This document shows positions 6,166-59,847 of a DNA stretch of 64,000 nucleotides, piece by piece; position 1 is the stretch's first letter, and the number at the start of each line of letters is the position of its first letter. The notes under the pieces are model-generated. The model was not told where the DNA came from. It saw only the letters and a program-made list of their open reading frames with translations, and did not search any database. Position numbers and translations under genes: made by a program. The stretch is from Heterodontus francisci. Lineage: Eukaryota. Location of the stretch: assembly GCF_036365525.1 (NCBI RefSeq), contig NC_090375.1:114398257-114462256 (forward strand), given 5' to 3'.

Positions 6166-6365
6166 AAAGTGCTGGAAATATACAGCAGGTCTGGCAGCAT
6201 CAGTGGAGAAAATGTTAACGTTTCAGGTCTGTGACGTTTCATCCAGTTCCAACGAAAGATCACAGACCTGAAACGTTAGCACCTGTGGAGAGAAAAAGAG
6301 TTGTCAGACCTGTGTATTTCTGCTTTTATTTTGGGTTTCCAGCATCTATTATTTTGCTTTTGTTT
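6166..6365. mobile_element. Short palindromic non-autonomous Penelope-derived element
   Basis: Inverted arms gttaacgtttcaggtc / gacctgaaacgttag match the ends of the 52636-55091 element. Flanked by ctctaaagattg (6154-6165) and ctcttaagattg (6366-6377). Confidence 0.7.
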
Positions 6366-10455: not shown

Positions 10456-10492
10456 GGTTCTGATGAAAGGTTATCAACCTGAAATGTTAGCT
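10456..10492 (+). ncRNA. Putative minimal hammerhead ribozyme in a Penelope-end fragment (10455-10550)
   Basis: CTGATGA (10460-66), extra A, AGGTT/atc/AACCT stem II, GAAA (10481-84), tgtt. Stem I is weak. Activity untested. Confidence 0.45.
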
Positions 10493-10684: not shown

Positions 10685-11722
10685 CAAAGTACGGAAAGTC
10701 CTCATCAGGGAACTCCTCTTTGCTGACGATGCTGCTTTAACATCTCACACTGAAGAGTGCCTGCAGAGTCTCATCGACAGGTTTGCAGCTGCCTGCAATG
10801 AATTTGGCCTAACCATCAACCTCAAGAAAACGAACATCATGGGGCAGGACGTCAGAAATGCTCCATCCATCAATATTGGCGACCACGCTCTGGAAGTGGT
10901 TCAAGAGTTCACCTACCTAGGCTCAACTATCACCAGTAACCTGTCTCTAGATGCAGAAATCAGCAAGCGCATGGGAAAGGCTTCCACTGCTATGTCCATA
11001 CTGGCCAAGAGAGTGTGGGAAAATGGCGCACTGACACGGAACACAAAAGTCTGAGTGTATCAGGCCTGTGTCCTCAGTACCTTGCTCTATGACAGCGAGG
11101 CCTGGACAACGTATGTCAGCCAAGAGCGACGTCTCAATTCATTCCATTTTCGCTGCCTCCGGAGAATACTTGGCATCAGGTGGCAGGACCGTATCTCCAA
11201 CACAGAAGTCCTCGAGGCGGCCAACATCCCCAGCTTGTACACACTACTGAGTCAGCGGCGCTTGAGATGGCTTGGCCATGTGAGCCGCATAGAAGATGGC
11301 AGGATCCCCAAAGACGCATTGTACAGCGAGCTCGCCACTGGTATCAGACCCACCGGCCGTCCATGTCTCCGCTATAAAGACGTCTGCAAACGCGACATGA
11401 AATCCTGTGACATTGATCACAAGTCGTGGGAGTCAGTTGCCAGCGTTTGCCAGAGCTGGCGGGCAGCCATAAAGACGGGGCTAAAATGTGGCAAGTCGAA
11501 GAGACTTAGTAGTTGGCAGGAAAAAAGACAGAGGCGCAAGGGGAGAGCCAACTGTGCAACAGCCCCGACAAACAAATTTCTCTGCAGCACCTGTGGAAAA
11601 GCCTGTCACTCTAGAATTGGCCTTTATAGCCACTCCAGGCTCTACTTCACAAACCACTGACCACCTCCAGGCGCTTACCCATTGTCTCTCGAGATAAGGA
11701 GGCCCAAAAGAAGAAAAAAGAA
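10685..11722 (+). mobile_element. 5'-truncated RTE-clade LINE with 18-bp TSD, inserted into a CR1 fragment
   Basis: RELLFADDAAL, FTYLGSTI, LRRILGIRWQDRISNTEVL and a C-terminal CxxC..H finger; premature TGA at 11052-54; A-rich tail. TSD agagaattccaaagattc at 10667-10684 and 11723-11740. Confidence 0.9.
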
Positions 11723-12924: not shown

Positions 12925-13019
12925 TGACTAAAGAGATGAGGGAGTGGGACAAGTAAAACAAAAGATGGGTCTAGAAGTGCAAATGGGAATTGCAGAATCA
13001 CCACCAACAGCTGCTGTCT

Positions 13020-14400
13020 GGGGGAAAAAATGGGGTAGTGGTTATGATCTGAAATTGCTGAACTCGGTGTTGAAGGTTGTAAAGTGCCTAATTGAAAGAT
13101 GAGGTGCTGTTCCTTGAGTTTACATTGCGCTTCATTTGTTCACTGTCGGAGGCTGAGATTAAACTGGGAGTGGGATGGAAAATTAAAATGACAGGCAACT
13201 GGAAGTTCCTGGGTCAGGCTTGTGGTTCTGCAAAACAATCACCCAATCGGCATTTGGTCTCCAATGCAAAGGAGACTGCATTGTGAGCAGCGAATACAGT
13301 ATACTAAATTGAAAGAAGTACAAGTAAATCATTGTTTCACCTGGAATGAGTTGGCCCTGGACAGTGGGCATGGAGGAAGTACGAGGGCAAGTGTTGCATC
13401 TCCTATGCTTGCACAGGATGGGCCATGAGAAGGGGAGGGGTTGTTGGTGATTCAGGAGTGGACCAGGGTGTGGCAGAGAGAACAGCCCTTTTGAAATGGT
13501 GAAAGGGGAAGGTAAGATATGTTTGGTATCATCTCTCGGAAGGTTGCAGAAATGGAGAAGGATGATTCAGTTGAATGTGGAAGGTATGGACAAGGGGAAC
13601 CCTATCATGGTTCTGGGATGGAGTAGAAGGGATTACAGCAGAATTGCAGGAAATGGGAGAGACAGGGTGAAGGACCCTGTCAACCATGGTGGAGGGGAAT
13701 CCTCGGTTGAGGAAAAAGGAAGACACATTGGAAGCACTGGTATTGAAGATCGTATCATCAAAACAGATGCAACGGAGTCAGAGAAATTGGGAGAATGGAA
13801 TAGAGTCCTTGCAGGAAGCAAGTTGAAAGGAGGTGTAGTCAATATAGTTGTGCAAGTCAGTGAGCTTACAGTGGATATTGGTTGATAACCTGTTTCCAAA
13901 AATAGAAAAGTGGAGGAAGGGAAGTGAGCAATCGAAGATGGACCACATGAAGATGAGAGGAAGGTGGAATTTGGAAGCAAAGTTGCTGAAATATTCCAGT
14001 TTGTGGCGAAAACAGGAAATGGCACCAATACTGTTAACAAAGAGAGGGGGCCTGAATAGTATTGGAAAAAAAATATTCCACACATCCCACAAAAAAGGCA
14101 TGCATTGTTAGGACCCATATTGTACCCATAGCAATACCTTTTATATGGAGGAAGTGAGTGGAGTTAAAGGAGAAGTTCTTCAAAGTAATAACAAGTTCAG
14201 CCAGGTGGAGGAGGATGGATGGAGATTGGTTGGACCTCAGTTCAAGGAAGAAGCGTAGGAATTTCAGATCAAACTGGTGGGGGATGGAGGTGTAGAGGGA
14301 TTTGGAACTCCATGGTGAAAAGGAGATGGTTAGGACCAGAAAACTGGAAACTGTTATAATGGCATAGGGCTTCAGAAGAGTTACAGATGTAGGTGAGAAG
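13020..14400 (-). mobile_element. Decayed Penelope-like element (RT + GIY-YIG)
   Basis: Minus-strand pieces [61 protein letters not shown] and YCIRCSQCSLL; homologous to 53076-54080. Confidence 0.85.
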
Positions 14401-15709: not shown

Positions 15710-16692
15710 TGTTATGACCTCTGTTGAGACCATTAACTTTAAAACAAGAGATATGAACTCCCCAGACCAATTAAAGAATTGCACAAGTTTTAAGACTTTT
15801 ACTATAATAATTAAATTAAAAATCAACATTAACTAAACAGTACTTAGTAGGTAGCTAATACATTAAATTACAGATTACTATTTCCCATTAACTTATTAAA
15901 ACACTTGAAGCCCCCACACCTCATTTATATGTTACAGTGTTTTCATTCAAGTTGGTAGCTTTGCAGTTAAAAGTCCCAAACTCCTGCCAGTTGGATCTCC
16001 CAGTCCTTAACAAAGCCAATGTCCTCTTTGCTCACTTCTACCGAGCACACACAACTTGGATTTGCATTAATAAGGCAATCTCTGGTGACCCTGTTGGTCT
16101 TTTCTCCTCCACAAACCTTGACTTTCGAACCGGGTTCAAATATTAGCAGCCTTTCAATTTATCAGTGTTCTGAGAGCAGTTGTTTTCTCTTTCTTCTTAG
16201 ACTGTGCAGCTTCTGCTGGTTTCTTTGTGTCTTCCTTTCTTTCTTACAGCCTGTTGAATTTATCCAGAATCACTGTCAATAGCCGTTTTCCTTTTACAAT
16301 ATTCAGAGTCCATACTTTTGGCCATATCAAAATGACCTGGGTCTTTCATTGTTTCCAAATGTTAGCAATTGCAACTTGAATTTGCATTTCGAGCCCCAGG
16401 CTCCCTGTTTACGATCTGAGAGTCTGGGAAAGTGGAACCCGTTGCCTGTTAGGTGTTACAACTTTGTACCTGTTTTCAAAAGGGTTTTTGTTTGGGGTTC
16501 CTTGTTGTCATGGTAACCAAGACCCCTGGCTTGTTAATAAAAGCCAAAAAACTGCAGCTGCTGGAACTCTGAAATGAGAACAGAAAGTGCCTGGCTTGTT
16601 TTTGTTTTTGGGCAGACTTGGTGTGAGGTCACTGCATTAAAGATCACAGTTTTAAAAACATAATCATACTATAAAGTTCAGCATTCATAACA
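15710..16692. mobile_element. Solo LTR (983 bp) with 4-bp TSD
   Basis: Perfect 8-bp inverted termini TGTTATGA...TCATAACA, flanked by aact (15706-09 and 16693-96). Confidence 0.75.
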
Positions 16693-16789
16693 AACTATAT
16701 TCGCTGGTCACAGAATGGTCTCTCTATTCTAGGAAGACCAAATAGTTGATTAAGTGACTACTTTGACAAACACATCCATTTTGCTTGCA

Positions 16790-17347
16790 AGTGCAACCCT
16801 GAGCTACCTCTGGCTCATCGCTTTAAGTCTCCCTTCCATTCTGACTCTGACCTCTCTGTCATTGGCCTCATGCACTGTTTCAATGAAGCTCAATTCAGGC
16901 TTCAAATTTCATCTTTCTGCAAATCACCTCACAACTCTTTTGAATGAACATGACTTCAGTGAGTTTGCACATCAGCTATAATCTCATTTTCAAAACTATA
17001 TTAACTTCACACCTGATTTCTAGGTTTCATGGTTTACATCTTTTCCATTTTCTGACATTTCCCCCATTCCGTTTGTCATTTACCCCTTCCTTTAATGTCT
17101 TAATATTTCTGTCCATTGCTTGACCAAGGTGATTTGTTACTTTGTTCCACTCATACATCTGCTCTGGATTTGTCCATATATATGATTTCCCTCTTTTTCT
17201 GATTGATTTAATATGCCTGTCAATTTTTATTTTGCAGTTTTGAAGGGTCTGTGCCTGAAATATTAACCTGTCTCTTCTCTCCACTGATGCTGACTGACGT
17301 GCTGTGGGTTTTCTGCAATTCCTGTTTGTATATCAGATTTCTAGCAT
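16790..17347 (+). mobile_element. Decayed Penelope 3' end, interrupted by the following solo LTR
   Basis: ctctgtcattggcctcatgcactg and cctgaaatattaac...cagatttctagcat; the terminal bases resume at 18315 (gcatctacag). Confidence 0.55.
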
Positions 17348-34100: not shown

Positions 34101-37100
34101 ATTTTGAGGGCATGAGAATAAAACTTGGGAAAATAAAATGGACAACAATATTGGCAAACAATGACGTTGACTAGCAATGGGAAACAATTAACACAGTGTT
34201 CAACAGAGCCCAGGAAAAACATACTCTGCTAAAAAGCAAAAAAAAAACCTAAACACGAATGAGACATTATAGATGAATAGACACAAGGAAAAAATTGAGG
34301 GTAAGGAAAGAGGCATACCCTATGTACATGGACAGCAGGGACGGGCAAGACAAGGGAGAATACAAAGAGATTAGGAGAAAAGCCAAAAAAAATTAGGTAG
34401 GCAAAGAGCAACCATGAAATTAAATTATCAAGGAACATAAAACAAAATACTGATGTATTCTACAGGCATATAAATAAAAAAAATGGAAAGTCTGTATGAG
34501 AATAGAGCCACTAAGGGATGGACAGGATAAAATCACAGGCAGCAATAACAAAATGGCAGAAATATTAATTACTTTTATTCAGTATTTACTAGGGAGACAG
34601 ATCAGGTGGACGTGACATTAGAAGATTAGATTAGAAATGATATAACTGCATTTAAAATAAAGAGGAGAAATATTAAATCAGTTAATCAAACTCAAAGAGG
34701 ATAAAGTGCTACTATGGACGGTTGCATTGTCAAAATACATGTGACGGAGCCGTACAAACTGGGAGAATGGAATAGAGTCCTTACAGGAAGCGGGGTGTGA
34801 GGAAGTGTAGTCAAGGAAACTGTGGGAGTCAGTGAGCTTATAGTGAATATTGGTTGATAGCCTAGTCCCAGAAATGGAGAGAGAGAAGTCAAGGAAGGGA
34901 AGGGAAGAGTCAGAGATGGACCATGTGAAGGTGAGGGAATGGTGGAAATTGGAAGCAAAGGTCAATGAGATTTTTCAGTTCTGGGCAAGAGCAGGAAATG
35001 GAACCAAAAGAGATGGGGGAGGAGGCCTGAGTAGGACTGGAACAAAGAATGCTCGACATATCCCACAAAAAGGCAGGCATAGCTAGGACCCATGCAGGTA
35101 CCCATAGCAACAGCTTTTATTTGGAGGAAGTGAGTGAAGTTGAAGGAGAAGTTGTTCAAAGTGAGAACAAGTTCAGCCAGGTGGAGGAGGGTGGTGGTGG
35201 ATGGGAACTGTTTGGGCCTCGGTTTAAGGAAGAAGCGGACAGTCCATAGACTGTCCTGGTAGGGGATGGAGGTGTAGAGGGATTGGATGTCCATGGTGAA
35301 AAGGAGCCTGGAAGCTGGAAACTATTAAAGTGACAGAGGGCATCGGAAGAGTCACGATGTAGGTGGGAAGAGACCGGACAAGAGGAGAAAAAATAGAGTC
35401 AAAATAGGAAGAAATCAGTTCAGTGGGGCAGGAACAGGCTGAAATGATAGGTTTACCAGGGTAAACCTGTTTGTGGATCGTTTGGAAGGAGGTAGAATTG
35501 GGCTGTTTGGGGTTGGAGGCCATGGAGGGAAGATGTCCAGAGGAGATGCTGCCCTGTTGAGATCAGCTAGCGCAACACCGATTAAGGATAAAACCTGAGA
35601 CCCTCCTGATCTGTAAGGCTCAGTACTACCCCGATCAAAACTTACCCATTGCTCTCCTTTCTAAAATAATTAAAGAAGTTGTATCATTTGTTTAATCTTT
35701 TGGAGTGTATTATACTGACATACTGTTTGGTTTTGAGTTGGTCATTCTGTACTTTTTGAAATGTTATTAGCTTCAAGGAAGCAATAACATTTGCTCGGCA
35801 AGAACAGTTTGATGCATATGTTGCTGTTGGAGGTGGATCCGTGATGGACACGTGCAAAGTGGCTAACCTGTACGCCTGCAGTCCTGATGCTGAATTCTTT
35901 GACTACGTCAATGCACCAATAGGGAAAGGAAAACCTGTTACCATTAGTCTCTGTCCTTTGATAGCAGGTGGGTTCATGCAGAAGATGTTTTAATAATGGA
36001 GTTGTTTGAATTGTGCCATTGGTAGCTTTCTGCATGGCATATGAATTGTGATCACAGTCTGCCGGTAGAATTTGAGTTTAGAGGGGGATCAGTATAAGTG
36101 AGAAGTGTTGATTGGCACATCTAATTCCCAGCATGACTGTACCGAGTGCAATTATTTCAAAAGAATGATACTGATTGATTTAAACATTTGAGAACATTTA
36201 AATTGTCATAAAAAACCCAGTTTCTTTATTTCCAAATACAAACATTTAACCCTGCTGTAAATGTATCAACCTATACTGTTGATTAAGCATTTATTATAGT
36301 GTGTAATCTATTTTCATTATATAGTCCGTATATTCTTAATTGCCAACACCTAATTTAATTTTTGTCCCTTCAACTTCTAGTGAAGCTACAAATATGAGAG
36401 CATTCAGATTGTGGACTGAATGGCTGTAGGAAGGGGAGTTTGACCAGTTTTCAGAAAGATAATATACTCTCCATTCTGTACTGTGCCAACCTGGATGGAA
36501 ATTGGAATTATTTGCAGACAGATAAACAGTTGAAAACGGACAGAAAGTTTTTATCTCCACATCTCTTCGCTCCCAATCCACTCTACCCCTGCTTCCCTCT
36601 CACCCCTCCTCCATCTCTCCCTCTTGCCTACATCTATCCCTCTTCCCTTAACTTCTCCTTCCCCTCCTTAACCTCCCCTCCCTTCCATTTCTATCCATTC
36701 CTCTCCCTCTCTTCTCCACTTCCCCTCTGTCCCCACATTACTTCCTTCCAGCCTATTTCTCTTCTCTACTTTTCTCTTTACCCCTCCTAACCTTTACTCA
36801 GCCCTGCTCTCCTGAAAAGTGCTCTTAGTCTTGACTACCCATGTACAATGCCTTGAGAGATTGACCAGTAACTAATTGTCAAAAATGCTCTTTCCATATA
36901 ATGTAGTAACATAACAGTATTGGCACAGGTCCCATTATAAAACTGCCACTCATCAATGAACGCAAAGATCTACATTGCATATATATGTCATCACACACCT
37001 TGCATGCTGATGTCACTAGCATGACATGCACATCTAAGAATCCGCCAAAGGCAGGGAAATTCTCATTTTGAAGGCCAGAATCAGACATTTTTTTTTAACC

Positions 37101-43100: not shown

Positions 43101-46100
43101 TCATTGAACAAGGGTAATTGCACACTAGGAGCCCCGCACCTATTTTCGGCGATGTCCAATTTACCCTCCTCAAAGTCTCCTTTGTTTTAAGAACATAAGA
43201 AGTAGGAGCAGGAGTAGGCCATTTGACCCCTTGATCCTGCTCCGCCATTCAATAAGTTCAAAGCTGAGCTTCTACATTGTCTCCACTTTCCTGCCCTATC
43301 TCTATATTCCTTGATCCCCTTAGCGCCCAAAAATCTATCAATCTTAGCCTTGAAGATGCTTATCAACTGAGTATCCACAGCCTTCTGGGGTAGAGAATTC
43401 CAAAGATTCACAATTCTTTGAGCGAAGAAGTTTCGCATCATCTCAGTCCTAAAAGGCTGAACTCTTATGTGAGACTATGACCCCCCAGTTCTAGATTCTC
43501 TAGCTAGGGGAAATAGCCTCACAAAGGACTTGACAGGATAGATGCTAAGAATTCTATACATTTCAATGAGATTACACCTCATTCTTCGAAACTCCAGAGA
43601 ATGTAGAATCATTTATGGTACAGAAGGAGGCCATTCTGCCTATCGAGTCCATGCCAGCTCTTCACAGAGCTATTCAGTCAGTCCCACACCCCATTCCATC
43701 CTCGTAGCCCTGCAACTCTATTTCTTCCAAGTGGCCATCCAATTTCCTTTCTGAAATCATTTATTGTCTTTGCTTCCACCATCCTTGTGGGCAGCGTGTC
43801 CAGATCATTGCCACCACTACATTAAAAAATCTTCCTCCTATTCCCCCTGCATCTTGTGCCCAAAGCCTTAAATCTGTGTGCCCTTGTCCTTGTTTCATTA
43901 ATTAATGGGAACAGTTTTTTCTTGTCTAACTTATTTAAGCCTGTTATAATCTTGTACAGCTCTACTAAATCTCTCCTTTGTTCTAAGGAGAACAACCTCA
44001 GTTTGTCCACCGAACCTTGTAACTGAAATCATCCATTCATGGAACCATTCTGGTTTATCTCCTCTGCACCCTCTCAAGGACCCTCACATCCTTCCTAAAG
44101 TGTGGTGATCAGACTGGATGCAATACACCAGTTGGGGCCAAACCAGAGCTTTATAAAGGTTCAGCATAACATTGCTTTTGTACTCAATGCCTCTGTTTAT
44201 GAAGCCCAAGATCCCATATGATTTAATAACCACTCTCTCAACATGTCCTGCCACCTTCAAAGATCAATGCACGTGAACCCCCCGGTCCCTCTGTTCCTGC
44301 CCACTCTTTAGAACTGTGCCATTAAGAATATATTGCCTCTCCCTATTCCTTCTGCCAAAATGTATCACCTCACACTTGTCAGTATTAAATTCCAACTGCT
44401 ATCTCTCTGCCTATTCTGCTAGCCTATCTATGTCCCGTTGTAGGCAGTTCATATCATCCTCAATGTTTGCCACATTGCCAAATTTGGTGTCATCAGCAAA
44501 TTTTGAGATTCCACTCAATCTCTCCTCAATTTCGCACTGGTGTAACATTGCCTGTTTGTATAAGTGGCTTTGTTGGAAATTCAAGCTCATTTACTAAATT
44601 GGAAAACACAGCCTACACTACATTTTCATGTACCTTCATGTATTAAGATCTGTTCAGCTTCCAGAAAAGGCTTTTAGCTTTAAGGAAATTGTGTAGTTTT
44701 TATTGTTAATGCACCTTCCTCAAAGTATTTAAATTTTTTTTAATAGATTGTAATTTCATTTAGGGACTTATACATTTGTTAACTGCAAATTTTTTTAAAT
44801 CTATCCTTGATAATTCTTGATTATACTCGGTCCTTTCAGCTAAGTCATTGATGTAGATTGTAAACAGCTGGGGCCCAAGCACTGATCCTTGTGGCACTCC
44901 ACTAGTTACACTCTACCATCTCAAAAATACCTGTTTGTACCCACTCTCTGTTTTCTGTCCATTAAACAATCCTCAATCCATGCTAATATATTACCACAAT
45001 CACATGAGCCCTCATCTTCTGTAAGAACCTCTTGTGTGGTATCTTTTCGAAAGTCTTCTGAAATCCAAATATGTTACATCCACTGGTTTCCATCTTACCT
45101 GCCCTGCTAGCCAAAAAGGTCAGAAGCTAGGCCAGGACCAGTTTTGCTGGGAATCAGCCTTCCTCCAGAGTTTTCTTCAGTTGCCTATTGAGAGCTCCAA
45201 TACACTCCTAATTTGGGCACCTCCATCGGATTTTGCCATTTCACAATGGCAGACCCCCTACAGGCAGCCCTAGTTGTGTATATGCTTGCCAAAGGCGGGG
45301 AAATGAGGTAACCTCTCTGTCCCCAGAAAGTACAGCAGAGACCATGGCAGAGGTTTCTAGAGGGCGCAGGTCTGACTTAAATTCTGGGCCCATGGACTTT
45401 CAGGGCTATTATGCTAGATTTTTATCATGGTGGTGGCAATTATTATTATTATATTTGTTCCCTGTTCGTATTAGTAAATCTCAATATTGACGAGCAGAGG
45501 CAATTCTAGTTTTTTCACCAAATATGTCATAGAGTCAAGAAATCTATTTTTAAGCAGTAAAACTAGATAGTTTTGTTTTGGTACTGTCTGCTAAATGTTA
45601 TCTTTTAGGTATTGCCAGCAGGGTTCTGAAACCAGTCCTTGGAATAGTGGATCCTTTGCACACACTGCACATGCCTGAACGAGTGGCAGCTTACAGTGGA
45701 TTTGATGTACTTTGGTAAGTAGCTTTATCAGTGTAAATATTTATGTCTCATCGTCGAGAATTTCTTCAGAGCTACTACTTCTCCACTGCCGTAACTTTGC
45801 TGAATGTGTGGGGGAAATCCTGTTTCTCATCACACTTCTGTCAGATTTACAGCTGGAGAAGCTCTGAGGAAATTGCCGGCCAAGGTTGCAAAAGTTTAAA
45901 TAATAGAAGGAATAAAATCCCTTTGTAGAAATTTAACTATATCTGTAATTATTTAACATAGTTGGATAATTTTCTTAGCTGCTGAGAGGATGTTTCCCCT
46001 TGTGGGGAATCTAGAACTAGGGGGCACAGTTTCAGAATAAGGGGTCTCCCATTGAAGACGGAGATGAGGAAGAATTTCTTCTCTCAGCGGGTTGTTAATC

Positions 46101-49100: not shown

Positions 49101-52100
49101 TGCAGCAAGACTTGGACAATATTGGGCTTGGGCTGATAAGTGGCAAGTAACATTCGCGCCACCCAAGTGCCAGGCAATGACCATCTCCAACAAGAGAGAA
49201 TCTAACCATCTCCCCTTGACATTGAATGGCATTACCATCGCTGAATCCCCCACTATCAACATCCTAGGAGCTACCATTGACCAGAAACTGAACTGGAGTA
49301 GCCATATAAATACCGTGGCTACAAGAGCAGGTCAGAGGCTAGGAATCCTGAGGCAAGTAACTCACCTCTTGACTCCCCAAAGCCTGTCCACCATCTACAA
49401 GGCACAAGTCAGGAGTGTGATGGAATACTCTCCACTTGCCTGGATGGGTGCAGCTCCAACAACACTCAAGAAGCTCAACACCATCCAGGACAAAGCAGCC
49501 CGCTTGATTGGCACCCCATCTACAAACATTCACTCCCTCCACCACCGACGCACAGTGGCAGCAGTGTGTACCATCTACAAGATGCACTGCAGCAACGCAC
49601 CAAGGCTCCTTAGACAACACCTTCCAAACCCGCGACCTCTACCAGCTAGAAGGACAAGAGCAGCAAATACATGGGTACACCACCACCTGCAAGTTCCCCT
49701 TCAAGTCACACACCATCCTGACTTGAAACTATATCGCTGTTCCTTCACTGTCGCTGGGTCAAAATCCTGGAACTCCCTTCCTAACAGCACTGTGGGTGTA
49801 CCTACCTCACATGGACTGCAGCGGTTCAAGAAGGCAGCTCACCACCACCTTCTCAAGGGCAATTAGGGATGGGCAAGAAATGCTGGCCTGGCCAGCAATG
49901 CCCACATCCCATGACTGAATAAAAGAAAAGTAGGATTTTATCTTGTAGACATTTTGGTAAGTGACATGAGGGGAATTTATTATTTTTAAGTTTTCTATTT
50001 CATTTACTCTTTAAAGAGTTTTACTGGTATTTTCATTCATATTTCTAGTATAATTCTCTTCCATGTCATTGAAATCATCTAGTTCTTCATCTGACAAATG
50101 TTCTAACTTTATAATGTCTCCAACATGTGGTCATGCGTTATAATTGGTTCTAGGTTATACATAGAAATTCATATAGGTTTATGGCACAGAAGGACGTTCT
50201 GCCCATTGTGTCTATGCCACAAACAGAACTGATTTAATATGCTCTTGAAATTACCCAGGGCTGAATTTTCCCAGCCCATGTGTTGATGGATTTGGAGGTG
50301 GGGAACGGCAGGGAAAGTACCAGGAAGCCAAATGTGCCAAATATCTCAGTTCGCAGAACATACAATAGGCATGGGTGAGGCAAAAAAATTCAGCCAGGTT
50401 CCAATCCTGATTGTTGTAATTCCTACTAGAAAGTGTGCCTGTATGGGGATCAGGTGAAAACATAAGAAATAGGAGCAGGAGTAGGCCATTTGGCCCTTCA
50501 AGCCTGCTCTGCCTTTCAATACAATCACAGCTGATCATCTACAACTCCACCTTCCTGCATTATCCCAATATCCCTTAATTCCCATAGTACCCAAAAATCT
50601 ATCGATCCCTGTCTTGAATATACTCAATGACTGAGCATCCAGAGCTCTCTAGGGTGGAGAATTCCAAAGATTCACAACCCTTAAAGTGAAGCAATTTCTC
50701 CTCATCTAAATGGCCAACCCTATATTCTGAGACTGTGACCCTATGTTCTAGATTCCCCAACCGGGAGAAACATTTTCTCAGCGTCTACCCTGTCAAACCC
50801 CTTAAAAATGTTATGTTTCAATTAGATCACCTCTAAACTACAGGGAATATAGACCTACTCTACTCAATCTCTCCTCATCCCGGAACCAGTCGAGTGAACC
50901 TTGGTTGCACTCCCTCTAGGACAAATACGTTTTTCCTTATGGAAAGAAACTAAAACTGCAGGTGTGGCCTCACCAATGCCCTGTATCATTGTAGTAAGAC
51001 TTCTTTACTCTTATACAAATCCCTTTGTACCAAAAGCTAACATATACATTTGCCTTCCTAACTGCTTGCTGTACCTGCATGTTAACTTTCTTTCATTCAT
51101 GTACAAGGACACCCAGGTCCCTCTGAAGGCAAATATTTCCCAGTCTCTCACTACTCAATAAATATTCCAAACATGAAGGATTTGATCTTTTAATTCAGAA
51201 ACGAAGCATCTAGTTAGTCAGCTAACTGCTTAACCTGCAAATCAGTTTCCCTCTCCATATATGCTGCCTGACCTTCTGAATATTTCTAGCATTTTCTGTT
51301 TTTATTTTCAGATCTCTAGCACTGCAGCATTTTGCTTTTGTATTGGCCTCTGCAGAGCTGTTGACTATGCAAATGATTGAGCAAGCCAATATTGAGAGCA
51401 GGATGGCCTTGGCTGTGATATCTCCATCCCACCAATCCTAATACTCTAGACCCATGTACAGAATTGGCAACTTGAAGTATTGAGAAGTCAGCAGTGTCTG
51501 TGAAATGTCTACAGGAGATAAAATTAACAAATATATATAAAATTTGCTACGTCTGTCACTGCAGAATGTTTGGCATGTAATTGTGTCAAGCGGTTATATA
51601 ATTTAGATCTAGTTGTTTTGTTTTTTCTTAACCAGACATAATTCCATGTTACCAGAAATAAAATATATTCGTAGTATAACGAAGACACTTTGCAGAGACT
51701 CTGTGGGCTATTTTCCCTGCTGTGGTCTCGGTAATTTAGGCGTTAAACAGTCTCTGAGGTGGCCAAGTAGGGGTCTTGAGTTGCAACAACTGTTTAGCCC
51801 ATCTTTAGTGCAGGATGCCATCTTGGTAAAGGGAGTTGAAGCGTGCACTAGGAACAGCCTCCCCAAGGACGATAAATGTTCTGGTGACCAATTAAGTTGG
51901 CTTCTAATGCTCAATAAAGAGACTGCACATCATTTTGCTGGCTAGCGCTGCAATTAACAACCTCTCCTAGTAGTGCCAGCTGAACAAGATCAAAGAGGCT
52001 GAGAATTACGAGCACTACTTAAAGCCATGCTCAGCCTTCACTGGTCATTTGCTGCTGGAGGTCAATTAACTACACTGCGTTTGAAAAGGACTTTTGATAG

Positions 52101-55100
52101 ACATTGGGAGACTTTCTGGAACACTGATAAGACTTCACCAATAATATCAAAATTTATTCTGGGTATTCTCTGAGGACTTCGCCTATTCTATTGGAGACCT
52201 TATAGGAGTTAAAAGGAGAAAGGCAGTGGTTGTTCATGGGGATCTTGCTAACTTCCCCCTTGGTCTGGAGGAAGTGCTGTGGCCAGAAGAGCAGCACCAG
52301 CGGCTGGAGGGAAGATGAAGTGGAGAGCTCCAGATTCATGGCGGCTGGCTGTATGCTTCACAATCTGGCAATCATGAGAGACCCACGTTGCAACCAGCAA
52401 TTCTGCCAGTGGGTCAAGGAAGAGGAGAAAAAGGAGGAGATTCAGGAGCAGGAGGAACACAAGGAGGAACAGGGGAAGCACCAGAGGCTTCCAGGTAGAC
52501 AGCCCATACCTGCGAGGGATGTTCACCGCCATCTAATTGAAGACCACTGTAAGGCAGGTCACTGAGGCTCTGCATGCAAAGACAGCTGAATACATTTCAT
52601 TCTGTCTTTCCAGAGAAAAGTAGGCAGAATGAGCAATAAAAACAAGAAATGCTGGAAATACTCAGCAGGTCTGGCAGCATCTGTGGAGAGAGAAGCAGAG
52701 TTAACGTTTCAGGTCAGTGACCCTTCTTCAGAACTAGCAAATATTAGAAATATGAAAGGTTATAAGCAAGTAAAGCGGGGGAGGGGCAAGAGATAACAAA
52801 GGAGAAGGTGTAAATAGGACAAAGTCACAGAATAACTGACCAGAAAGTCATGGAGCAAAGGCAAACAATATGTTAATGGTGTGTTGAAAGACAAAGCATT
52901 AGTACAGATAGGGTGTTAATAGACTGAAAATTGAACAGCCGCAAGTATAAACATGAAAAAAAAACAGTGGGTAAGCAAACTGAACAAACTAAGATGAAAT
53001 AAAATAAACACAAAAAAAAATTATAAAAAAGGAAAAAGAAAAAAAAAACTGAAAATAAAAGTAAAATGGAGCCCGTCATGCTCTGAAATTATTGAACTCA
53101 ATGTACAGTCTGGCAGGCTGTAGTGTGCCTAACGGGTAAATGAGATGCTGTTCCTCGAGCTTGTGTTGATGTTCACTGGAACACTGCAGCAATCCGAGGA
53201 CAGAGATGTGAGCATGAGAGCAGGGCGGAGTGTTGAAATGGCAAGCAACCTGAAGCTCGGGGTCCTGCTTGTGGACTGAGCAGAGGTGTTCTGCAAAGCG
53301 GTCACCCAGTCTGCGTTTGGTCTCCCCAATATGGAGGAGACCACATTGTAAGCAGTGAATACAGTATACTACATTGAAAGAAGTACAAGTAAATCGCTGC
53401 TTCACCTGAAAGGAGTGTTTGGGGCCAGGGACAGTGAGGAGAGAGGAGGTAAATGGGCAGGTATTACACCTCCTGCGATTGCAGGGGAGGTTGCCGTGGG
53501 AAGGGGACGAGGTGGTGGGGGTAATGGAGGAGTGGACCAGGGTGTCAAGGAGGGAACGATCCCTTCGGAATGCTGACAGGGGAAGGGAGGGGAAGATGCG
53601 TTTGGTAGTAGCATCATGCTGGAGGTGGCGGAAATGGCGGAGGATGATCCTTTGGATATGGAGGCTGATGGGGTGGAAAGTGAAGACAAAGGGAACCCTG
53701 TCGCAGTTCTGTGAGGGAGGGGAAGGGGTTAGGATAGAGATGCGGGAAATGGGCCGGACACGGTTGAGGGCCCTGTCAACCACAGTGGGGGGCAATCCTC
53801 AGTTGAGGAAAAAGGAAGACATATCAGAAGTGCTGTCATGGAAGGTAGCATCATCAGAGCAGATGCGTCGGAGACAGAAAAACTGGGAGAATGGAATGGA
53901 GTCCTTACAGGAGGCAGGGTGTGAAGTAAGTGTAGTCGAGGTAGTTGTGGGAGTCAGTGGGCTTATAATGGATATTAGTAGACAGCCTATCCCCAGAGAT
54001 GGAGATAGAGAATTGAGGAAGGGAAGGGAAGTGTCAGAGATGGACTATGTAAAGGTGAGAGAAGGGTGAAAATTAGAAGCAATACCACTACCAAATGCAT
54101 CTTCCCCTCCCTTCCCCGTCAGCATTCCGAAGGGATGGTTCTGTCCGTGACACCCTGGTCCACTCCTCCATTACCCCCACCACCTCGTCCCCTTCCCATG
54201 GCACCTTCCCCTGCAATCGCAGGAGGTGTAATACCTGCTCATTTACCTCCTCTCTCCTCACTATCCCTGGCCCCAAACACTCCTTTCAGATGAACAGCGA
54301 TTTACTTGTACTTCTTTCAATGTAGTATACTGTATTTGCTGCTCACAATGTGGTCTCCTCTACATTGAGGAGACCAAACGCAGACTGGGTGACCGCTTTG
54401 CGGAACACCTCCGCTCAGTCCGCAAGCAGGACCCTGAGCTTCCGATTGCCTTGCCATTTCAACACTCCCCTCTGCTCTCATACTCACATCTCTGTCCTGG
54501 GCTTGCTGCAGTGTTCCAGTGAACATCAATGCAAGCTCGAGGAACAGCATCTCATTTACTGATTAGGCACACTACAGCCTGCCGGACTGAACATTGAGTT
54601 CAGTAATTTCAGAGCATGACAGCCCCCCCATTTTACTTTTATTTTCTGTCTTTTTTTCTTTTTTTATATTTTTTTGTGTTTATTTTATTTTATTTCATCT
54701 TAGTTTGTTCAGTTTGCTTACCCACTTTTTTTTCATGTTTGTACTTGCGGCTGTTCAATTTTCAGTCCATTAACACCCTATCTGTACTAATGCTTTGTCT
54801 TTCAACACACCATTAATATATTGTTTGCCTTTGCTCCATGACCTTCTGGTCAGCTATTCTGTGACCTTGTCCTATTTACACCTTCTCCTTTGTTATCTCT
54901 TGCCCCACTCCCGCTTTACTTGCTTATAACCCTTTACATTTCTAATATTTGCTAGTTCTGAAGAAGGGTCACTGACCTGAAACGTTAACTCTGCTTCTGT
55001 CTCCACAGATGCTGCCAGACCTGCTGAGTATTTCCAGCATTTCTTGTTTTTATTTCAGATTTCCAGCATCTGCAGTATTTTGCTTTTATTTTAGGCAGAA

Positions 55101-56826
55101 TGAGCACACAGGTTTGCCAGGATTGCAGGTTTCCCCACGGTGCAGGGTGCTATTGACTGCACACAAGTCGATCTGTGAGCACTGGATGTTAATTCTGAGA
55201 TGTACTGCAACCAGAAGGGCTTCCACTCCCTCACTATCCAGCTGGTAGTCCACTGCACCATCTGCATTTGAACCATGAGACACCAGAGGATGGCTACAGG
55301 GCTATTGGCTAACCACCTGGCTCGTGTCTGATGAGCAATCCATCCACATGTGGGCAGTATGCATATAACGAGAGCCATGCTGCCACATGAAATGTCATTG
55401 AACAGACCAATGGGATGCTTAACCAACACTTCCAATGTCTGGACGGCTCTGGAGGATCCCTGCAGTACTCACCAGAGCATGTGTCAAAATTCTTTGTGAT
55501 CTGCTGCACCCTGCACAACCTCACTATCATGACAGCATATCCCTTACCACCAGGTATACAGTGAGTAGCTGAGGCGGAGGAAGGGAAGAAGCAGCCAACC
55601 CAGCCCCTTCCAGCTGCGCTATTCATGATTGTCTCATACAACTGTGGTACCAGTGAACACTACCCCACTTCCCATTCACCAACAGTCCCAGACTTTACCT
55701 CCCCTCTGTTCCTGATGATCACAGCATCCTCTTGGCCACAATGCAGAAATAAAAGGCACCACAAAACAAACATTCCAAACCAACTTCATAAGTCAAACCA
55801 TCCAGTATTCCATACAAAAGTCAATTAATCGTTGTTGTGCCTTCACTTAGTGCCTGTCATCCATATACCTTTGCCTGTCCTGGTGCCCCTACACAATGCT
55901 TGCCCAGTGGCTGCAGCATGGCTGGTGGAAAGCTGATGACTTTCAGTGGGGGTGACTGAGGATGACCTTGAGCAACTCTGGCCCTAGAAGACCCAGCTTT
56001 GGACTGCACCATCTTGGCATCGGTAGCAGCAGTCTGTGATGGCTGACTGACAGGTAACAGCAAGGGCACTAGTGGGAGCACAAGTGCTGTCATACTGAGA
56101 AGGACAGCAGTTTTGTGCTCCACAAAGCCACTGTCACACCCCGTAGTTTCTTTAGTAAGGAGTGTGAGAGGCCAGGCTTTGGAATTGTTATTAGGAAGGA
56201 GGGACTGAGTGGGAGTACAGGCTGACAGGGAGCCAGCCAGGTGCTTAGCAACAGAGAATGGAGGTGAGCTAAATTACCCACCCTTTTCTAGTACAGGATG
56301 GCAGTGATACTAGCAGGCCAAGGCCATGAAAGGTGTAGCTATGGAACAAGACTGCTGAGGATGATCTAGAAGTAGGACTGGGAAGGGACAATGCGTAAGA
56401 ACAGTTGTCCAGAAAGCTATCTGGGAACTTGCCACCCATGGGTCACCAGCCAATCACATGAAGGCAAAAGAACCACAAACCAAATTGCTCGAAGAGTAAC
56501 AGAGGCTTGGATGCAGAATTTAAAAGAGCAGTCAGATAGCTAAAAGAAAATCTGAACTCTCTTTTTAATAATATGCAAACTCTTTTCCAATTGAAAAGTA
56601 AAGTTTAAATTTCTTCACTGTATTCCACACAGGAAAGATGTTTAAAGTTCTTGACACTCTCTCTTGTCTGTAGTCATGCACTGGAGTCCTACACAGCTCT
56701 TCCTTACAACTTACGATCGCCATGCCCCCCAAACCCAATCAATCGTCCAGCTTATCAAGGGAGCAACCCTATCAGTGATGTATGGTCCATGCACGCGCTA
56801 AGAATTGTGGCCAAGTACATGAAAAG
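19094..56826 (+). CDS. ADHFE1: Hydroxyacid-oxoacid transhydrogenase (iron-containing ADH family), exons 1-9, 3'-partial: join(19094-19146,25811-25848,27286-27329,27434-27487,31616-31770,35771-35967,38827-38904,45609-45714,56674-56826)
   Basis: Nine GT-AG exons join in frame (878 nt) to [30 protein letters not shown]...[15 protein letters not shown]...[11 protein letters not shown]...[13 protein letters not shown]...GFDVLCHALESY...[11 protein letters not shown], collinear with vertebrate ADHFE1. Confidence 0.96.
19607..24558 (-). mobile_element. Full-length decayed Gypsy/Ty3 LTR retrotransposon in ADHFE1 intron 1
   Basis: LTRs at 24295-24558 and 19607-19757 (TGTTGTAT...ATACAACA); PBS-like TGGTGAACAG; PPT GGGAAGAGA; flanks gatta/gatca. 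Domain order: gag ([23 protein letters not shown]), Zn knuckle [14 protein letters not shown], protease LDTGAS, RT HMDDIL, RNase H (IEKE..TDHKPL), integrase ([24 protein letters not shown]). Many stops and frameshifts. Confidence 0.93.
24660..24845 (-). mobile_element. 3' end of the LINE family seen at 46672-49925
   Basis: Reverse complement of 49745-49925 (VAGSKSW..LP.STVG.PT..GLQ.FKK..HHH). Confidence 0.75.
24860..25446 (+). mobile_element. CR1 ORF2 internal fragment
   Basis: [19 protein letters not shown] and [13 protein letters not shown]. Confidence 0.75.
25811..25848 (+). CDS. ADHFE1: ADHFE1 exon 2
   Basis: cctag|[14 protein letters not shown]|gtaat; 38 nt. Confidence 0.92.
26395..26975 (+). 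mobile_element. CR1 (HER1-like) 3' end
   Basis: [32 protein letters not shown] and the 3' tail gaggggccgagtggcctactc...ttcttatgtt. Confidence 0.85.
27286..27329 (+). CDS. ADHFE1: ADHFE1 exon 3
   Basis: ttccag|[16 protein letters not shown]|gtac; 44 nt. Confidence 0.9.
27434..27487 (+). CDS. ADHFE1: ADHFE1 exon 4
   Basis: tttcag|[18 protein letters not shown]|gtaag; 54 nt. Confidence 0.95.
27839..31250. mobile_element. Decayed PIF/Harbinger DNA transposon: transposase (+, about 28300-29380) convergent with a spliced Myb/SANT-like gene (-, about 29700-31110)
   Basis: + strand: [70 protein letters not shown]. - strand: [31 protein letters not shown]|GTGAGT...AG|[12 protein letters not shown]. 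Outer boundaries are approximate. Confidence 0.8.
31616..31770 (+). CDS. ADHFE1: ADHFE1 exon 5
   Basis: tgtag|[25 protein letters not shown]...[10 protein letters not shown]|gtaag; 155 nt. Confidence 0.96.
32442..32797. mobile_element. hAT-superfamily MITE (356 bp)
   Basis: TIRs TAAAGGCCTGCT / AGCAAGCCTTTA (11/12); 8-bp flanks caccacca/ctccacca; many subterminal GTCGGG/CCCGA repeats. Confidence 0.8.
32810..34715 (+). mobile_element. Old CR1 fragment (ORF1 end, endonuclease, linker) containing an HE1 SINE
   Basis: Decayed LYSNA..TETW..GGGVAVL..ESMWIEI..VGVVHR and [25 protein letters not shown] motifs. Confidence 0.7.
33009..33362 (+). mobile_element. Full-length HE1-like V-SINE
   Basis: A box tggcgcagtgg, B box ggttcaattc, V-domain and CR1-type tail. 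Confidence 0.88.
34715..35545 (-). mobile_element. Penelope-like RT fragment
   Basis: [87 protein letters not shown]. Confidence 0.88.
35771..35967 (+). CDS. ADHFE1: ADHFE1 exon 6
   Basis: ttag|[35 protein letters not shown]...PLIA-G|gtggg; 197 nt; GGGS cofactor-binding motif. Confidence 0.97.
36585..36812. repeat. Pyrimidine-rich low-complexity tract
   Basis: About 230 nt almost entirely C/T on the + strand. Confidence 0.8.
37224..37672 (+). mobile_element. Deu-domain SINE, near full length
   Basis: Collinear with 9312-9764, ending in the uninterrupted tatataaatgcaagtc tail. Confidence 0.8.
37688..38470. mobile_element. Probable non-autonomous Harbinger-related element with an internal ~71-bp tandem repeat (about 38085-38245)
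   Basis: Starts taa-GGGGGTAATTTTAAC, like 27839, and shares the ggtttccctgg.ctca..aa block with 28093 and 1990. The repeat cagcaccatcttcccct.gccccctccactgtgatc occurs twice. Confidence 0.45.
38827..38904 (+). CDS. ADHFE1: ADHFE1 exon 7
   Basis: cctag|[28 protein letters not shown]|gtata; 78 nt. Confidence 0.97.
38970..43168. mobile_element. Second decayed Harbinger element: transposase (+, about 39490-41050) and Myb/SANT-like gene remnants (-, about 41300-42830)
   Basis: + strand: [35 protein letters not shown] and EVTEAVYS|MRANN. - strand: acceptor cag|[16 protein letters not shown] at 42827. Boundaries are approximate. Confidence 0.7.
39918..40397. mobile_element. MITE nested in the Harbinger transposase
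   Basis: Imperfect TIRs gggtggaatctt / aagtttctgccc with 3-bp flanks tat/aat; removing it restores the transposase reading [14 protein letters not shown]. Confidence 0.6.
43189..45100 (-). mobile_element. Stack of CR1 fragments (about 43189-43590, 43600-44510, 44830-45100)
   Basis: Minus-strand [40 protein letters not shown] and CR1 3' tails. Confidence 0.8.
45609..45714 (+). CDS. ADHFE1: ADHFE1 exon 8
   Basis: tttag|[38 protein letters not shown]|gtaagt; 106 nt. Confidence 0.97.
45975..46330 (+). mobile_element. CR1 3' end
   Basis: [24 protein letters not shown] plus 3' tail. Confidence 0.85.
46672..49925 (+). mobile_element. Near full-length CR1/L2-group LINE: tRNA-like head and a single frameshifted APE-RT ORF
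   Basis: B box GGTTCAAATCC at 46732-42. APE motifs [36 protein letters not shown] motifs [32 protein letters not shown] stop at 49866, then a short 3' UTR and A-rich tail. Confidence 0.88.
50459..51165 (-). mobile_element. CR1 3' fragment
   Basis: Tail aacataagaaataggagcaggagtaggcc and decayed similarity to 60667-61400. Confidence 0.8.
52699..52735 (-). ncRNA. Putative minimal type-I hammerhead ribozyme (antisense copy)
   Basis: Exact reverse complement of 54954-54990. Confidence 0.55.
54954..54990 (+). ncRNA. Putative minimal type-I hammerhead ribozyme
   Basis: AGTT-CTGAAGA-a-gggtc/act/gacct-GAAA-CGTT-AACT: CUGANGA and GAAA cores, stem II hairpin, stem I AGTT/AACT, self-complementary ACGT stem III, GUU cleavage triplet. 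Confidence 0.6.
56674..56826 (+). CDS. ADHFE1: ADHFE1 exon 9
   Basis: tgtag|[53 protein letters not shown]|gtaat; 153 nt. Confidence 0.97.
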
Positions 56827-59617: not shown

Positions 59618-59847
59618 CAAAAGCAAAATACTGAGGATGCGGGAAATCTGAAATAAAAAGAGAAAATGCTGGAAATACTCAGCTGGTCAGGCAGCATCTG
59701 TGGAGCGAGAAACAGAGTTAACGTTTCAGGTCGATGACCTTTTGATCTTCTGATGAAAAGACATTAACCTGAAATGTTAACTCTGTTTTTCTCTGTCCAT
59801 AGATGTTCCTGACCTGCTGAATATTTCCAGCATTTTCTGTTTCTATT
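59618..59847. mobile_element. Short palindromic non-autonomous Penelope-derived element with 13-bp TSD
   Basis: tcatgatcaaggt at 59605-17 and 59848-60; two inverted Penelope ends; CTGATGA...GAAA at 59750-59774. Confidence 0.82.

Follow-up and report, generated by a model that had tools for sequence, protein, structure and literature searches.

The window, a 64,000-nt stretch of the Heterodontus francisci genome, carried five plus-strand host exons with AG/GT borders that joined in frame, and the exons tested matched Fe-ADH models. Two of these exons flank the intron that holds the motif studied here:

45609 to 45714, + strand: exon of the Fe-ADH gene, upstream of the motif's intron
56674 to 56826, + strand: exon of the Fe-ADH gene, downstream of the motif's intron

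The intron between them is 10,959 nt long, and the motif lies in it in the sense direction of the gene. From human exon sizes and motifs we take the gene to be ADHFE1, and by human numbering the flanking exons would be exon 8 and exon 9 and the intron presumably intron 8. The first-pass annotation had placed the motif sense to ADHFE1 in intron 8; exon mapping bore out the Fe-ADH intron and the sense orientation, while the gene name and the intron number follow the human gene.

A 15-bp target-site duplication encloses two 5'-truncated copies of an element in head-to-head orientation, so the 2.46 kb at 52636–55091 were regarded as one insertion. The features of this locus are as follows:

52621 to 52635, + strand: left copy of the 15-bp target-site duplication that encloses both arms
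52636 to 54086, − strand: arm A, a 5'-truncated, putatively Neptune-type PLE copy with a tail-less 3' end (inner border approximate)
52699 to 52735, − strand: identical twin hammerhead, the exact reverse complement of the motif (37/37), antisense in the host pre-mRNA
54087 to 55091, + strand: arm B, a shorter, 5'-truncated and frameshifted copy with linker, GIY-YIG, 3' region with the hammerhead, and tail
54954 to 54990, + strand: minimal type-I hammerhead motif, from the descriptor match and the consensus in the available part of the supplement of PMC4209133
54987 to 55054, + strand: 68-nt stretch between the predicted cut and the tail-less end, seen joined head to tail elsewhere in the genome and not in tandem here
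55055 to 55091, + strand: PLE tail of about 37 nt, at this one end of the insertion only
55092 to 55106, + strand: right copy of the 15-bp target-site duplication that encloses both arms

Arm A contained a broken C-terminus of the reverse transcriptase (RT), a cysteine linker and GIY-YIG, with an open stretch of 240 codons at 53076–53798, and the stop codon of arm B was at 54617–54619. The two arms were identical in 906 of 981 columns. The motif follows the GIY-YIG stop codon at a distance of about 340 nt, and about 100 nt separate it from the end of the element. The 240-codon stretch matched 8 proteins among 960 candidates (>420 aa), the best four matches being named shark and ray proteins with 55–59% identity, and an unnamed 892-aa homologue bore both RT (RVT_1) and GIY-YIG; by itself the piece in the window stayed below the Pfam cut-off (E = 0.26). 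Both arms have the linker CNRRRCNTC (cysteine, CX2-5CxxC type) between RT and endonuclease, and this linker, with the reported presence of Neptune in vertebrates, points to a Neptune-type PLE. Unlike the Neptune-clade EN+ PLEs covered in the available part of Craig et al. 2021 (PMC8557442), the element is represented here by broken 3' pieces only, and Neptune rather than Nematis is a provisional choice from linker and vertebrate presence. The same part of that paper describes PLE inserts with target duplication, an inverted arm and a one-sided tail. The read tables (see below) gave two 3' ends for the family, at 55054 and in a cluster at 55087–55094, and the two insertions of the window that have a target duplication show these ends as well. 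The anole Poseidon element PAc, as covered in the available part of Frangieh et al. 2024 (PMC11167929), likewise has two ends about one tail length apart downstream of the hammerhead, the tail being the stretch between two RT start sites, but its clade and motif sequence differ. PLE remnants of greater age and divergence, with homology to RT or endonuclease, were seen at 13000–14300 (with a different 3' region), 34700–35200 and 16690–16900. Also, the first approximately 45 residues of P0008, a predicted Heterodontus HHAT isoform, were 84% identical to the endonuclease end of the element, so the start of P0008 is possibly an exonised piece or a gene-model error.

The 37-mer was found at 54954–54990 exactly as the first-pass annotation had spelled it. 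Stem I is AGTT/AACT, and the core is CTGAAGA (C3 at 54958, U4 at 54959, N7 at 54962) with a single unpaired A at 54965 after A9. Stem II is GGGTC/GACCT with the loop ACT, and its first pair is a G10.1-U11.1 wobble (10.1 at 54966, 11.1 at 54978). The second core box GAAA starts with G12 at 54979, the palindromic ACGT (15.1–16.1, in place of stem III) occupies 54982–54985 with U16.1 at 54985, and H17 is U at 54986. CUGANGA, GAAA, U16.1 and H17, all required for the core, are present, and the cut is predicted after GUU, between 54986 and 54987.

Could such a motif be a chance arrangement of bases? The loose two-box pattern had 8 matches in the window against a mean of 4.45, and 8 were reached in 10 of 100 shuffles, so this pattern is not above chance in the window. 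The minimum-energy fold of the 37-mer consisted of stems I and II (−5.9 kcal/mol; pair probabilities 0.94–0.98 for stem II and 0.60–0.83 for stem I in the isolated 37-mer), its stability was ordinary (z = 0.02), and an Rfam search gave no hammerhead match at E ≤ 10. But the full descriptor (3-bp stem I, core, unpaired base, stem II, GAAA, pairing 15.2–16.2, U, H) matched three times in the window (10460+, 54958+ and 52731−) and in none of 200 dinucleotide shuffles, and the motif is located where PLEs carry such motifs. A chance origin is refuted by the shuffles together with the match to the published consensus (available part of PMC4209133), and its probability is negligible. Inspection of the sequence and the descriptor counts thus confirmed that both core boxes, stem II, the closing stem I and the palindromic ACGT are there as first described, and that the hammerhead motif is real.

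The available part of Cervera and De la Pena 2014 (PMC4209133) gives the consensus NNN CUGANGAH G..C GAAAN palindrome NU H NNN, has many GUU triplets in its table, and includes several vertebrate rows, among them cichlid, Xenopus and coelacanth, in which stem II begins with a G-U pair. Our motif shares with these PLE min-HHRs the type-I layout, CUGANGA with the unpaired base, stem II, GAAA, the palindromic 15.1–16.1 without stem III, the short stem I, the position in the 3' terminal repeat and the very high copy number. For the first pair of stem II the consensus has G10.1-C11.1; the 54954 copy has G-U, as do the published vertebrate rows just named, and C11.1 is found in about 40% of the family reads. 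A difference is that a large subfamily here is U4C, whereas the core variant described in the available part of that paper is U3-A8; the part of the supplement covered contained no shark. The motif belongs to a class known since 2014 and is a further example of it. Our preferred explanation, with a probability of about 0.72, is that the 54954 motif is the min-HHR of a truncated Neptune-type PLE copy in the host intron, and that predicted pairing with the antisense twin likely keeps this copy inactive. The assignment to the PLE min-HHRs, already made by the first-pass annotation, agrees with the anatomy of the motif and with its place behind a GIY-YIG remnant. By analogy with published min-HHRs, stem III would be rebuilt in an active element by the pairing of two copies of its RNA at ACGU, the element's own protein would probably assist the dimer, and the cut after GUU would process tandem transcripts.

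The twin at 52699–52735 had been missed in the first pass. It is 2.2 kb upstream of the motif and would be transcribed earlier in the pre-mRNA. The twin duplex was predicted at −67.7 kcal/mol, compared with −5.9 for the hammerhead stems, and in the predicted fold of 52630–55100 all 37 nt of the motif paired with the twin, among 928 long-range pairs. At this locus the antisense arm, being transcribed first, would sequester the motif in about 0.93 kb of duplex, and the host pre-mRNA therefore would stay uncut. In the modelled fold, cleavage of host pre-mRNA by the 54954 copy is unlikely, because all of its nucleotides are predicted to be paired with the twin, although splicing factors or editing could open this long duplex. 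The predicted intronic duplex of about 0.93 kb within 52636–55054 is also a candidate A-to-I editing substrate.

An alternative is that the 54954 copy does cut the ADHFE1 pre-mRNA in the intron and alters splicing or level. Its core is intact and sense to the gene, and the isolated 37-mer is predicted to fold into stems I and II, but besides the much stronger pairing with the perfect upstream twin, the natural 5' flank from 54900 alone dropped the probability of stem I to <0.01, the full descriptor found no second intact sense partner in the host intron, and the copy is one of very many in the family. We consider this alternative very improbable. The activity in ADHFE1 pre-mRNA that the earlier description implied is unlikely, since the twin is predicted to bury the 37 nt, an intact sense partner is missing and published min-HHR monomers are inactive, with low activity of dimers (available part of PMC4209133). 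Some splice-like features were noticed around the twin: it offers a donor-like CAG/GTCAGT at 52710–52718, position 52613 is the end of a pyrimidine tract with CAG that resembles an acceptor, and a candidate exon at 52614–52712 (+ strand, 99 nt) would place a stop right after the upstream exon. The predicted Heterodontus proteins P0009 and P0010 lose similarity at this donor-like point.

BLAST showed that 7 further alignments in the window overlap the motif, and 3 of the 8 copies passed the full descriptor. Besides the motif and its twin, the following copies were distinguished:

10456 to 10492, + strand: decayed family copy that passes the descriptor, with ATGT instead of ACGT
59618 to 59847, no strand assigned: short insertion joining two decayed element ends head to head, with a 13-bp target duplication
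6167 to 6365, no strand assigned: another short pair of decayed ends in head-to-head orientation, with the junction at the 5' side of the hammerhead

In both head-to-head pairs the inversion point was the 5' side of the hammerhead. The copy at 10456–10492 is about 76% identical to the main motif, folds differently when alone, and lies upstream of the first host exons located, so that a placement inside the gene cannot be stated for it. We take the adjoining 10700–11300, by resemblance, to be a probable LINE reverse-transcriptase remnant. The stem II of this copy had been described as different but still paired, and as suggesting covariation. The paired AGGTT/atc/AACCT is present, but covariation was unsupported: over the 8 window copies, which are related, 75% of cells paired, and 294 of 500 shuffles equalled that. 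Of the two changes in this copy, one falls where the 59742 copy has a CpG. For the pair 10.1–11.1, the window alignment had A-U in 6 of 8 rows, one of them misaligned by eye, and G-U in 2 of 8. The copy at 51239 seems to begin at the cleavage site, and with its 5' end being ambiguous it was left out of the counts.

For family-wide variation, four runs were placed on 54850–55120 at 80% likeness. The family comprised 130,489 contigs in X1 (count incomplete), 72,439 raw reads in X13, 10,941 contigs in X11 and 11,863 in X5; X11 and X5 are contigs whose RNA origin is guessed, and therefore they are uninformative on ends, strand and editing. The local alignment clips divergent subfamilies, which biases the variant shares. 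We examined 40 of 73 variant rows, the weakest of these reaching 19% in some run, and four of the rows fell inside the motif. In X13 these were U4C (9,182/21,888 reads), A>U at N7 (10,271/23,324), G>A at 10.1 (6,737/26,173) and U>C at 11.1 (12,234/30,937, that is about 40% C11.1). Among these 40 rows, 10 of the 11 core positions counted had no major variant. The shark family carries the motif, as had been proposed. Read depth rose steeply across 54950–54990, partly from the clipping of divergent subfamilies.

Positions 10.1 and 11.1 are partners in stem II, and either change alone turns the G-U into a Watson-Crick pair; the chance that two of three such sites are partners is about 0.07. Taken position by position, as the read tables give it, this pairing-compatible variation is at most suggestive of compensation, and the U/C at 11.1 could alternatively be CpG turnover. 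The shares of U4C and 11.1 U>C in the four runs were similar (0.33/0.30, 0.42/0.40, 0.46/0.41 and 0.62/0.54), which suggests that a single subfamily combines a variant core with two additional CpG sites. Within the 40 of 73 rows, the hammerhead was not more conserved than its flanks (variants at 4/37 versus 28/194 positions, p = 0.39), and disruptive changes in the hammerhead (1/31) gave p = 0.06 overall and p = 0.21 against the downstream flank alone. Covariation and excess conservation across the family, both expected from the first-pass reading, are not statistically shown.

The motif was also looked for outside this genome. The read-through tail of P0003 from zebra shark can be back-translated, some 360 nt beyond the endonuclease, to both core boxes, ACGU-C and a stem-loop II that differs from the one here. 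This match was obtained only with a stem I of ≤2 bp, the version with a 3-bp stem I having failed, and 2 of 2,000 shuffles matched as well. For antisense copies in translated proteins, a word search found none and a profile search found 8 proteins, of which two were unrelated bacterial-type repeat proteins, and the remaining six were too few and too decayed for a haplotype test. Family anchors had 0 matches in viral contigs; one match in metagenomes was inspected and judged chance, and two in bacterial genome bins were taken as chance. Protein-based locus searches confirmed 0/4 and 0/63 stretches.

These data bear on another explanation, in which the hammerhead-shaped motif hardly cuts and is retained for a role in folding or in protein binding, or simply travels with the element end. 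U4C was present in 33–62% of the placed sequence across the four runs, and this core change lowers activity in vitro according to the available part of PMC3088659. The lack of extra conservation relative to the flanks fits the same explanation, as do the reports, in the available parts of these sources, that the anole hammerhead cuts only with the element protein, that its mutants left in vitro insertion unchanged and that no RNA reads ended at its cleavage site (PMC11167929), and that only 1 of 9 Xenopus dimers cut (bioRxiv 10.64898/2026.07.22.740005). Against it, 10/11 core positions are without a major variant in the rows examined, the changes in stem II leave its pairing possible, the element of another shark (P0003) retains the core, and a tandem joint coincides with the predicted cleavage site. 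We consider a hardly cutting motif unlikely, though still worth weighing, and retain the PLE min-HHR.

This tandem joint was the most abundant one in X13 among the 15 of 362 joints listed: 68 nt back, from 55052 to 54985, with 407 reads. The same joint with diverged ends had 664 reads from 55039 and 29 from 55036, giving at least 1,100 reads in X13, which is a DNA run, and it was present in 3 contigs of X1 and absent from the rows listed for X11 and X5. Two letters fit either side, so that the joint reads equally as 55054 to 54987, and in this reading the tail-less element end adjoins the base that directly follows the predicted cut. In addition, 2,276 loose ends lay at 55039, and their consensus continued into this start (agreement 0.64). 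The chance of a joint on the cleavage site is 0.09–0.17, given about 6 distinct tandem joints among the 15 of 362 listed. There was no pile-up of molecule ends in the table, as expected for DNA and contigs.

One reading of the joint is that the 68-nt head-to-tail units are a DNA fossil of in vivo hammerhead cleavage in the shark family, in which the element RT would begin at the tail-less start (55054), copy cleaved RNA to its 5' end (54987) and then jump to the next template. A single array, amplified and enriched by capture, may also be the source of the joint reads, and the joint would look identical, with no RNA cleavage, if a new copy had gone into an older one at TT/AAC. We offer the fossil reading as tentative and somewhat doubtful. 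If true, it would attest directly to cleavage by PLE min-HHRs in the course of transposition, in a family with U4C in about 40% of the copies; the in vivo role of PLE hammerheads is called unclear in the available part of PMC8557442. For the anole PAc no RNA ends were detected at the cleavage site (available part of PMC11167929), whereas here a DNA joint lies on it. Our literature search, which missed most subscription papers, Repbase/Dfam and bioRxiv supplements, found no paper on cleavage-site tandem joints or on shark PLE hammerheads. Non-LTR retrozymes, as far as the available parts of PMC7229834 and bioRxiv 10.64898/2026.07.22.740005 describe them, are also tandem repeats from PLE terminal regions, and the latter reports hammerhead-bearing retrozymes in one chondrichthyan; but each retrozyme unit has a hammerhead, whereas the locus here is not tandem and the 68-nt unit is without the core. 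No array of tandem hammerhead-bearing units was found within the 64-kb window, and the two motifs of the locus are inverted.

By itself the locus is of little weight, being one truncated copy among very many. The in vivo role could be tested from the assembly alone, given a huge family that has two 3' ends, a subfamily with a variant core and a joint at the predicted cut. As a further observation, the 68-nt stretch at 54987–55054 was predicted to fold better than its shuffles (z = −2.71, 1/200), and this fold is possibly a protein-binding or RT-start structure of the element.
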